Shown: positions 39,001 through 42,000 of the stretch, in pieces
How positions within the stretch are numbered: position 1 is the first letter of the stretch
Layout: each line of letters opens with the position of its first letter
NCBI RefSeq assembly: GCF_054482525.1
Contig: NZ_CM137006.1
Reading direction: 5' to 3' (one strand)
Length of the DNA: 64,000 nt
Made by a program: the position numbers

Positions 39001-42000
39001 AAGAGAGTGAAAACCGTGCTCCCACTCGCAGTCATCTTCCTGCACTCCTGCCATAATTCTGATATTCCAGGAAAGAGAGCCATCCATGAATACAGATACG
39101 TTTATGTGCAGCAGCGACGAAAAACAGACCCGCAGCCCGCTGTCGCTGTATTCGGAATACCAGCGGATGGAGATTGAGTTTCGCGCACCGCATATCATGC
39201 CCACCAGCCACTGGCATGGTCAGGTCGAAGTGAATGTGCCTTTCGATGGCGATGTGGAATACCTGATCAACAATGAAAAAGTGAGTATCAATCAGGGACA
39301 TATCACGCTGTTCTGGGCCTGTACACCGCACCAACTAACAGATACCGGAACCTGTCAGAGCATGGCGATTTTTAATCTGCCGATGCATCTGTTTCTCTCC
39401 TGGCCGCTGGATAAAGACCTGATTAACCACGTCACTCACGGCATGGTGATCAAATCACTGGCGACACAGCAACTTAGCCCGTTTGAAGTGCGCCGCTGGC
39501 AGCAGGAATTGAACAGTCCGAACGAGCAAATTCGCCAGCTCGCCATTGATGAAATTGGCCTGATGCTCAAGCGATTTAGCCTCTCTGGCTGGGAACCGAT
39601 TCTGGTCAATAAAACCTCGCGCACACACAAAAACAGCGTCTCGCGCCATGCGCAATTTTATGTCAGCCAGATGCTGTAATGCCAGTCAGTTAAGCAACTG
39701 ACTGGCTCTTTTTCGGGGCTGTGGGGTATTTCCAGGGCCTCTCCTTTACCACTCTCGGGAAGGCCCTTTCCCTTCTTGTCGGTAATTTCACAAGTTGTCC
39801 CATACTTGCAAGATCGCGCATCAGCTCCGGTATACGTCCCGGTGAAGCGCCCTGCAATGTCATCAGCATTCTCATCACCATTCCGCATGATTCTGAGAAA
39901 CTCAGTTGATTCGGCCAGTAACCTTTCAGATGTTCCGCCATTTTAATCATCTGATATCTCACCAGATTATAAGCCAGTAAGACACCCCACAGCTCTTGCT
40001 CCACAAGCTCCGGTTTTTTACTTCTCAGCGTCAGCCTGCTCAGTTGCATCGTCTGTTTTATCTCCCTGTATCCCAGTTCGATTTCCCAGCGATGACTGTA
40101 CAGATCCGCCATTTCTCCTCCGGGGAAGCGCATGGCGTCCGTCATCGACGTCAGCAGATGGCAGACTTTTCCTTTGCGCGTCACGGTCAGCAGGCGGGCT
40201 GTCACTTCATTTCCCAGTCCCGGCCACTTTTTTCGTGCCTGCGGGCTGGTTTTCAGCTTCACCAGATGATCGCCTTTACCCAGTTTTCTGATCTCTTCAT
40301 ATTGCGCTCCCTTTCTGAGAGGTATCATCCAGTGGCGGTGTTCTCCCGCCAGGCTCCAGGCATTTAACAGTCCCAGTGAGTAATAACCTTTATCCATTAA
40401 CGTCAGAGTGTTATCGCCGGTTTGTTCTATAAGTTGCTCAGCAAGCTCATTTTCGCTGTTCTTCATCGTGCCGAAGGCTGCAGCCGTCAGCAGATGGCTG
40501 GTCAGTTCCATCTGGCAGACCATTTTGACCTGCGGGTAGAGCGCCGGGTTCCCGGCATGTGTCTGGCGGGGGAAGGCTGCATCGTTCTCTAGTGTATCCG
40601 GTGTGCGCCAGAACACACCATCGATGGCCAGCAGGGTCAGGCCGCACCAGTGCGGATGCGGCGTGGCGTTATGCCAGAGCTGCGCTGTTTTCGTGAACAC
40701 GCGGCGGACAGCCTCACTTCCCAGGCGCTGGCGGGCCTGAATAACGGCACTGGGGGCAACGAAGGGGCGATTGCCCGGCAGCATGATGTCCAGGCGATTC
40801 ACAATCTGGTGAAGAGGTTCTTTACGCTCAAGCGCCATGCCAACAATACACCAGACCATCATTTCGAGGGGAAGACGGCGCTTGCGTAGCGTTACAGTAC
40901 CTGATTCGGCAAGGCAACGAGAGATGAGTTCGGGGTCGAGGTAATCCCCCAGAGAAGTCAGTGGGTTACGCAGAGAATCGTAACGGGATACCAGATCAAG
41001 AGCCTGTCCAATGTGCATAAAAAAATCCGGAAACAAGTGAGCGTTTCCGGATTCTTACACAGCCACTGGATCGGTCAACTGATCCTTAACTGATCGGCAT
41101 TACAGCCAGATGCTGGGCTTTATTGCCGAAAACTATGATCAGGCGCTGACCATCAACGATGTGGCTGAGCACGTCAAACTTAACGCCAACTATGCAATGG
41201 GGATATTCCAGCGGGTCATGCAATTGACGATGAAACAGTACATTACCGCGATGCGCATCAACCACGTTCGCGCGTTACTGAGCGATACCGATAAAAGTAT
41301 TCTCGATATTGCCCTGACGGCAGGCTTTCGTTCGAGTAGCCGTTTTTACAGCACGTTCGGCAAATATGTCGGCATGTCACCGCAACAATACCGCAAACTT
41401 AGCCAACAGCGCCGCCAGACGTTTCCCGGCTAAAGACGATATCAGTATCAGCCAAAAAAATAGTTTAGCCGTCGATAATAAGCAGTGAAAATAATTTAAA
41501 ATAATCACATAACATATTGTTTATAAAAACAAATATTTCAAAAATGTTTGTTTTTCACGCGCTTTACAGCCCGAAAAGGCCGGAAGATACTTGCCCGCAA
41601 CGAAGATTCCTTCATAACCGGGTAAGCAATGATGAAAGTATTAATTGTTGAAAGCGAGTTTCTCCATCAAGACACCTGGGTCGGTAACGCCGTTGAGCGT
41701 CTGGCTGATGCTTTAAGCCAGCAAAATGTTACCGTGATTAAATCCACCTCCTTTGATGATGGTTTTGCCATTCTCTCTTCAAACGAAGCCATTGACTGCC
41801 TGATGTTCAGCTATCAAATGGAACATCCGGACGAACATCAAAACGTCAGACAATTGATCGGTAAGCTTCATGAGCGCCAACAAAACGTGCCGGTCTTCCT
41901 GTTGGGCGATCGGGAAAAAGCCCTCGCCGCAATGGACCGGGATCTGCTGGAGCTTGTCGATGAATTCGCCTGGATTCTGGAAGATACCGCCGACTTTATC

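Follow-up and report, generated by a model that had tools for sequence, protein, structure and literature searches.

Recent IS4 insertion at a preferred target site within melR of an Escherichia coli strain, predicted to disable activation of melAB

In the window, by which we mean the whole stretch of 64,000 nucleotides analysed here, an inserted element splits the melibiose regulator gene melR, and this raises the questions of what the element is, when it arrived, why it sits where it does, and whether the strain can still use melibiose. The explanation that we favour, and regard as very probably correct as a whole, is that an IS4 copy inserted recently, in the strain's own lineage, at a preferred target within melR, disabling the activation of melAB.

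Anatomy of the split gene

The earlier note had described a melR reading frame that halts at ...FYVSQML and picks up again after the element, a 13-bp direct repeat at both of the element's edges, and melA and melB genes left intact, and each part of this description stands. The first open reading frame (39086-39679, plus strand) encodes 197 amino acids and ends as described, and the TAA that closes it (39677-39679) consists of the first three bases of the element itself. Beyond the element the frame continues at 41110-41433 as MLGFIAENYDQ...FPG, with its stop codon at 41431-41433. A direct-repeat search returned exact copies of the 13-bp sequence CAGCCAGATGCTG at 39664-39676 and 41103-41115, abutting the termini of the element on either side and present as a single copy in the closest relatives; as an effect of this target-site duplication (TSD), the (S)QML codons occur twice. 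The gene is thus divided into a 5' part (39086-39676, plus strand; codons 1-197), which covers the N-terminal ligand-binding domain and the linker, and a 3' part (41116-41433, plus strand; codons 198-302 and the stop), which covers the whole AraC-type DNA-binding domain as delimited with NF007693 and Pfam.

That the interrupted gene is melR, again as had been claimed, follows from the match of both pieces to the NCBIfam MelR equivalog NF007693, the 5' piece at profile positions 8-204 (394 bits) and the 3' piece at positions 203-309 (228 bits), and from excision in silico: once the element and one repeat copy are taken out, the sequence equals the annotated melR of strain SCU-102 (WP_001090771.1) at 909 of 909 nucleotides, and neither half carries any further lesion. 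The surroundings agree with those of SCU-102 in gene order, melR being divergent from melB-melA (minus strand) and followed by adiA and adiY (plus strand). The melibiose permease gene melB (35924-37345, minus strand; product beginning MSISMTTKL..., the start being taken as the ATG located eight codons inside the listed TTG open reading frame) is 100.0% identical to its counterparts in SCU-102 and PCN033, and the alpha-galactosidase gene melA (37448-38803, minus strand; 451 amino acids, annotated as melA in SCU-102) likewise shows 100% identity, so that both genes equal the copies found in relatives whose melR is intact; homologues of melA on contigs L001 and L002 carry the Pfam domain Glyco_hydro_4. 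The divergent melAB-melR regulatory region (38804-39085), with MelR and CRP sites whose roles have been described (PMC2377442), is unaltered and 100% identical to that of the relatives. Judged by its sequence, melR in the source strain is a disrupted allele, a pseudogene.

The inserted element and its internal signals

The element had been proposed to be a complete IS4 with terminal inverted repeats of the IS4 type and an intact transposase reading frame, and its length, its ends, the length of its TSD, the family and motifs of its transposase and its identity to the K-12 copy all fit that proposal. It spans 1426 bp (39677-41102) with the transposase gene on the minus strand, and its alignment with the IS4 copy of the K-12 lineage (annotated insG) runs from end to end without gaps, 1421 of the 1426 nucleotides (99.65%) being identical; one copy in strain EC812A1 is 100% identical. 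IS4 is common in the species: of 5,426 complete E. coli genomes, about 2,479 carry full-length copies. The 64-kb window holds a single one. The 18-bp terminal inverted repeats, TAATGCCAGTCAGTTAAG and TAATGCCGATCAGTTAAG, match each other at 16 of 18 positions and occupy the transposase-distal (39677-39694) and transposase-proximal (41085-41102) ends, where they were located by an inverted-repeat search and by a degenerate terminus pattern that matches the window at exactly these two places, where chance would give 0.04 matches. Both repeats carry the end signature of the IS4 subgroup, -AATR..., and both the size of the element and the 13-bp duplication in melR fall within the ranges given for that subgroup, namely 1400-1650 bp (PMC2266710, Table 1) and 10-13 bp (PMC2266710).

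The InsG-like transposase gene (39690-41018, minus strand) is uninterrupted over 442 amino acids plus a stop, from the ATG at 41018 to the stop codon at 39690-39692, as compared with a RefSeq annotation of 448 amino acids that begins at an upstream TTG. Its product scores 304.7 bits against the IS4 family transposase model NF033592 (cutoff, 115), and an identical protein carries the Pfam domains Nterm_IS4 and DDE_Tnp_1. The residues D133, D209 and E314 are separated by spacers of 75 and 104 residues, D133 and D209 having been picked by position and pattern rather than by structural alignment, and a Y-2-R-3-E-6-K motif is found at residues 307-321, in conformity with the family definition D(60-110)D(100-150)E plus Y-2-R-3-E-6-K (PMC2266710). 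The element thus shares with the K-12 IS4 (insG; ISfinder IS4, family IS4, subgroup IS4) its 1426 bp, its 18-bp ends and a 442-residue DDE/YREK transposase, and differs from it in its insertion site, in five nucleotides and in three amino acids (P143L, G304A and R326L), none of which affects a motif residue. The identical transposase variant is present on 41 contigs and at several chromosomal sites, including tynA-feaB, the vicinity of kpsF, and aroA-ycaL, from which it is evident that this variant has moved. The copy in melR may be active, a reasonable supposition given that its reading frame and both its ends are intact, that its variant occupies several sites, that relatives whose flanks are 100% identical lack the insertion, and that IS4 of K-12 transposes at a low rate, accounting for 8 of 758 new insertions in mutation-accumulation lines (PMC5009759).

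Three signals within the element bear on its transcription and on that of melR. A terminator-like hairpin with an 11-bp stem followed by a T-run (39681-39706, plus strand; terminator scan and folding, minimum free energy -26.2 kcal/mol, z = -2.8) starts 5 nt inside the element, faces the transcripts that arrive from melR, and probably ends the truncated melR transcript. At the other end, directly upstream of the transposase ATG, an inverted-repeat search and folding revealed a strong hairpin followed by T7 (41056-41021, minus strand; -32.1 kcal/mol, z = -6.5), in the manner of a leader structure. A promoter-like site, TTGACC-16-AAGAAT with TG (41078-41051, minus strand; a consensus match only), reads into the transposase gene, and its -10-like hexamer overlaps the 5' arm of the leader hairpin. 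This arrangement suggests that transcripts started at the putative promoter of the element would lack the 5' arm of the hairpin, and that in transcripts coming from beyond the element the hairpin would fold and either cause termination or mask the start codon. The use of a leader hairpin against activation from outside is a familiar strategy of insertion sequences.

Predicted consequences for MelR and melAB

The role of MelR as the activator of melAB, on which the earlier note had based its prediction of impaired melibiose use, is described in the literature: activation normally takes four MelR molecules together with CRP, and DNA binding resides in a C-terminal domain of about 100 amino acids (PMC2377442). 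In the reconstructed MelR of 302 amino acids, the Pfam domain HTH_AraC is matched at residues 200-241 and 254-291 and HTH_18 at residues 214-291; since the gene is split after codon 197, the product is left without any DNA-binding domain, the C-terminal double helix-turn-helix being no longer contiguous with residues 1-197 but separated from them by the 1426 bp of the element. What lies beyond the element could be translated from an in-frame ATG at 41110 into a fragment of 107 amino acids; a scan of the right end of the element for a promoter-like site on the plus strand found none, and no Shine-Dalgarno-like sequence was seen before that ATG.

The sequence of events is, in our view, the following. 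An IS4 copy transposed into melR at codons 193-197, duplicating 13 bp of its target, and its landing point was not a random one: the site fits the quasi-palindromic preference of IS4, is the best of its kind in melR and has been hit independently elsewhere. The melR transcript now encodes residues 1-197 only, ends its reading frame at the TAA supplied by the element and meets the terminator-like hairpin 5 nt later, and the C-terminal domain is stranded with neither a promoter nor a ribosome-binding site of its own. Lacking a MelR able to bind DNA, the melAB promoter would remain unactivated. It is probable, on these sequence grounds, that melAB is not inducible and that the strain is melibiose-negative despite its intact melA and melB; the autorepression of the melR promoter would be lost as well.

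The prediction has precedent in Salmonella Typhimurium ST313, in which one missense change in melR abolishes growth on melibiose and its restoration rescues that growth (PMC6333337). That F-to-L substitution and the frameshifts found in melR of E. coli share with the present case the loss of the activator and the retention of melA, the mechanism being a different one. A further parallel is the classical inactivation of E. coli and Shigella regulators by insertion sequences (gene loss driven by IS elements, PMC7373316), where an element likewise splits a regulator and silences an intact catabolic operon; here, in contrast, the event stands alone, in an IS-poor stretch of a commensal or ExPEC-like background, and belongs to no IS expansion.

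An insertion that is real need not, in principle, abolish melibiose use, which could be kept if read-out from IS4 drove a low constitutive expression of melAB, if the orphan DNA-binding domain of 107 residues activated the operon, or if another alpha-galactoside system compensated. We consider this improbable, even though several features of the locus lend it some substance. The transposase gene, melA and melB share the minus strand, the element lying upstream of melAB, and the distal end of the element offers read-out on that strand no T-run after the hairpin; nevertheless, the sole promoter-like site found is the element's own weak one described above, between the element and melAB the minus strand has a terminator-like hairpin (39649-39633), and expression of the IS4 transposase is generally low, if judged by the rate of transposition (PMC5009759). 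The helix-turn-helix fragment does begin with an in-frame ATG, but neither an outward promoter nor a Shine-Dalgarno-like signal was found before it, and activation of melAB normally takes four MelR molecules and CRP (PMC2377442). As to compensation, other alpha-galactoside systems, such as raf genes, could lie outside the 64-kb window.

Age of the insertion and choice of target

The three complete genomes closest to the window, those of SCU-102, PCN033 and 19KM1776, are 100.0% identical to it over the 24.7 kb that precede the element and the 22.9 kb that follow it (about 47 kb in all), and in each of them the matches to the two flanks overlap by exactly 13 bp, which corresponds to an empty site with one copy of CAGCCAGATGCTG. 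Among the 5,426 complete genomes of E. coli, none has the allele in its present orientation, and a query with a synthetic junction for the opposite orientation had no match in those genomes either. Given that relatives with flanks of 100% identity keep the empty site and that no complete genome has the allele, the insertion is recent and confined to the source strain. An origin of the window in Shigella, considered in view of the absence of the allele from E. coli genomes, was set aside, the flanks being 100% identical to those of ordinary E. coli strains.

Outside the complete genomes, the exact 197-residue product is recorded on only six short contigs, none of which has the present orientation. 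In two contigs, L002 (SRR29937339) and L004 (ERZ27274283), the same melR nucleotide adjoins an IS4 terminus, and the terminus is in both cases the transposase-proximal one (TAATGCCGATCAGTTAAGGATCAGTTGACC...), which places the element in the opposite orientation; the evidence for recurrence thus consists of two short contigs from unrelated short-read assemblies, with one junction each. Their melA-melR flanks show 98.4% and 95.7% identity with the window, respectively, which argues for independent events in other backgrounds. Contigs L001, L003, L005 and L006 were discarded as evidence of insertion, for they carry an intact melR that ends 1-2 nt past codon 197 (…GCTGG/GGG). A search of JGI metagenome contigs with the 19-nt junction AGCCAGATGCTGTAATGCC gave eight matches, all of them chance matches in unrelated sequence.

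Right-hand junctions were sought by looking up the C-terminal open reading frame of 107 amino acids, and no further IS4 alleles were present among the ten matches listed, which come from 24 of 373 index blocks and were mostly small frameshifts in melR, some of them probably sequencing errors, with one IS10-like case. Other natural lesions of the gene comprise small frameshifts, carried by L078 and L080-L082, and an IS10-like element of E. coli DSM 103246 whose junction is 4 bp away from the IS4 site. In that strain melAB and the 5' portion of melR have been replaced, whereas here everything except for the insertion is intact and the allele would in principle be revertible by precise excision.

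Insertion sequences are often misassembled, and an allele seen in none of 5,426 complete genomes invites the suspicion that a repeat was mis-joined and that melR is really intact; we hold this to be very unlikely, because such a mis-join would not yield an exact 13-bp duplication abutting both of the precise termini of the element, the length of that duplication is within the 11-13 bp of other IS4 copies, and independent assemblies join an IS4 end at the same melR nucleotide. Still less credible is an old pseudogene fixed in the lineage, since the recurrent loss of the regulon in various other E. coli, whose melR is damaged by frameshifts or IS10, is outweighed by the empty site in genomes with flanks 100.0% identical over about 47 kb, by a reconstructed gene that equals a functional-length allele and has no further lesion in either half, by the identity of the two TSD copies and by the lack of any other recorded assembly with this orientation.

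To describe the target choice of IS4 we compiled 65 unique half-sites, melR being excluded from training, from a Kosakonia oryziphila draft genome, a Photorhabdus genome, IMG/VR contigs and E. coli loci; the Kosakonia and Photorhabdus half-sites came from a contig scan with the IS4 end, in which E. coli had no representative. Relative to the end of the element, the half-sites have A at positions -20 to -16, are C-rich from -14 to -9, and have G at -4 and -1. The full target is therefore a quasi-palindrome of an A-run, about 20 bp and a T-run with a GC-rich core, which often resembles a bidirectional terminator, and the symmetry of this target makes insertion possible in either orientation. A target consensus of AAA-N20-TTT has been described for IS4. 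When a weight matrix was applied to the window with the element removed, the melR site came 78th among 187,488 candidates (top 0.05%, with 36 loci scoring higher); within melR, the site ranks first in the 12-bp register, and the 13-bp register, the one observed, is third of 2,730. Among ten other complete IS4 copies the TSD measures 12 bp in seven cases, 13 bp in two and 11 bp in one.

The TSD in melR also resembles that of the widespread IS4 insertion in yicI (for example, in strain 118UI, NZ_CP032515.1), another gene split by a full IS4, with a nearly identical core (CAGCCAGGTCTG, as compared with CAGCCAGATGCTG in melR) and a similar right arm (G.GATTTAT, as compared with GGCTTTAT), and it is because of this resemblance that BLAST matches to the yicI insertion run 17-21 bp into the melR flanks. 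The two alleles differ in that the yicI insertion has a 12-bp TSD and is present in many genomes, whereas the one in melR has a 13-bp TSD and is private to its strain. The melR site is a preferred IS4 target, and this preference accounts for the position of the element inside melR, not for the choice of melR over other loci. One might go further and propose that codons 193-197 of melR are a natural IS4 hot spot, used in both orientations and in unrelated backgrounds, that would serve gut populations as a recurrent, perhaps selected, melibiose off-switch, possibly in combination with precise excision, and that in the present strain read-out from the element may also give rise to melAB expression independent of MelR; we regard this extended proposal as doubtful and offer it tentatively.

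Implications for the melibiose regulon

Both partners in this event are textbook entities, and the knockout of a regulator by an insertion sequence is a well-known occurrence, so that neither a new element nor a new mechanism is at hand. In the literature searched, we found no paper that deals with IS4 together with melR, and since no complete genome has the allele either, the specific melR::IS4 allele appears to be undescribed. What the present analysis adds is that this position of melR is a preferred IS4 target, used by independent insertions of either orientation.

For the source strain, these results predict a melibiose-negative biotype, and the two melR::IS4 junctions provide a strain-specific marker by which it can be told apart from relatives that are otherwise identical, SCU-102 and PCN033 among them. 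For the element, the locus offers a clean natural example of the strong target selectivity of IS4, the same nucleotide having been used in both orientations, independently, at the site that scores best in the gene. For the enterobacteria at large, the predicted silencing of an intact melAB operon through the loss of its activator is one more indication that the melibiose regulon has been lost repeatedly.

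Apparently recurrent lesions of the mel genes

The IS4 insertion is not the only lesion seen in melR. In E. coli DSM 103246 (NZ_CP019944.1, 4923178-4924722; loci L075/L095), the 3' part of melR borders directly on an IS10-like element, which is annotated as ISVsa5 family and encodes a 402-aa transposase. The two meet at TGCTGGGCT, 4 bp away from the point where IS4 landed, and island and IS sequence stand in place of melAB and the melR 5' part. Four other loci (L078, L080, L081 and L082) carry frameshifts of 1-2 nt in melR slightly upstream of codon 197, and part of the melR indels in these other assemblies may be sequencing errors; melB is wholly absent from L074, L081 and L082, the equivalent of window 35780-37447 being missing. 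Across assemblies, decay of the mel regulon seems to be a recurrent event.

The island at the start of the window

The first 2508 nt of the window belong to the terminal part of a CP4-type genomic island, with ORFs for a CbtA-family toxin (392-766), a DUF5983-like protein (763-1254) and a DUF4942-like protein (1553-2398). The match to SCU-102, a close complete E. coli genome, has 99.99% identity and starts only at 2509, breaking off at the SCU-102 tRNA-Phe gene; a search of window 1-5000 detected no tRNA gene, and no complete genome matched window 1-15000 at more than 98.4%.

IS4: expression, spread and landing places

In the minus-strand region 41021-41078, a very stable hairpin followed by T7 (z = -6.5) lies directly 5' of the IS4 transposase ATG and is overlapped by the -10-like hexamer of the IS promoter, an arrangement that would let IS-initiated transcripts pass and block those from outside.

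Among other assemblies, a 265-bp contig labelled Methylobacterium mesophilicum NBRC 15688 (NZ_BPQU01000128.1, L019) bears an IS4 end whose adjoining flank is identical over 40 nt to that of the E. coli K-12 IS4 copy; it most likely represents E. coli K-12 contamination of that assembly. In the Kosakonia oryziphila REICA_142 draft (L020-L035), at least 15 contigs have an IS4 end that agrees with the E. coli IS4 terminus at every one of 35 nt, which suggests that E. coli-type IS4 has recently multiplied in a Kosakonia genome.

The predicted IS4 targets with the best scores, at window ~28257-28296 (core CCGCATGTGCGG at 28271-28282) and ~2534-2572, resemble bidirectional intrinsic terminators, with an A-run, a GC-rich palindrome and a T-run; exactly this form is found at the recurrent IS4 site between tynA and feaB (L086), aaaaaaCGGCACCTGGTGccgttttttt. 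Terminators may be preferred landing places of IS4.
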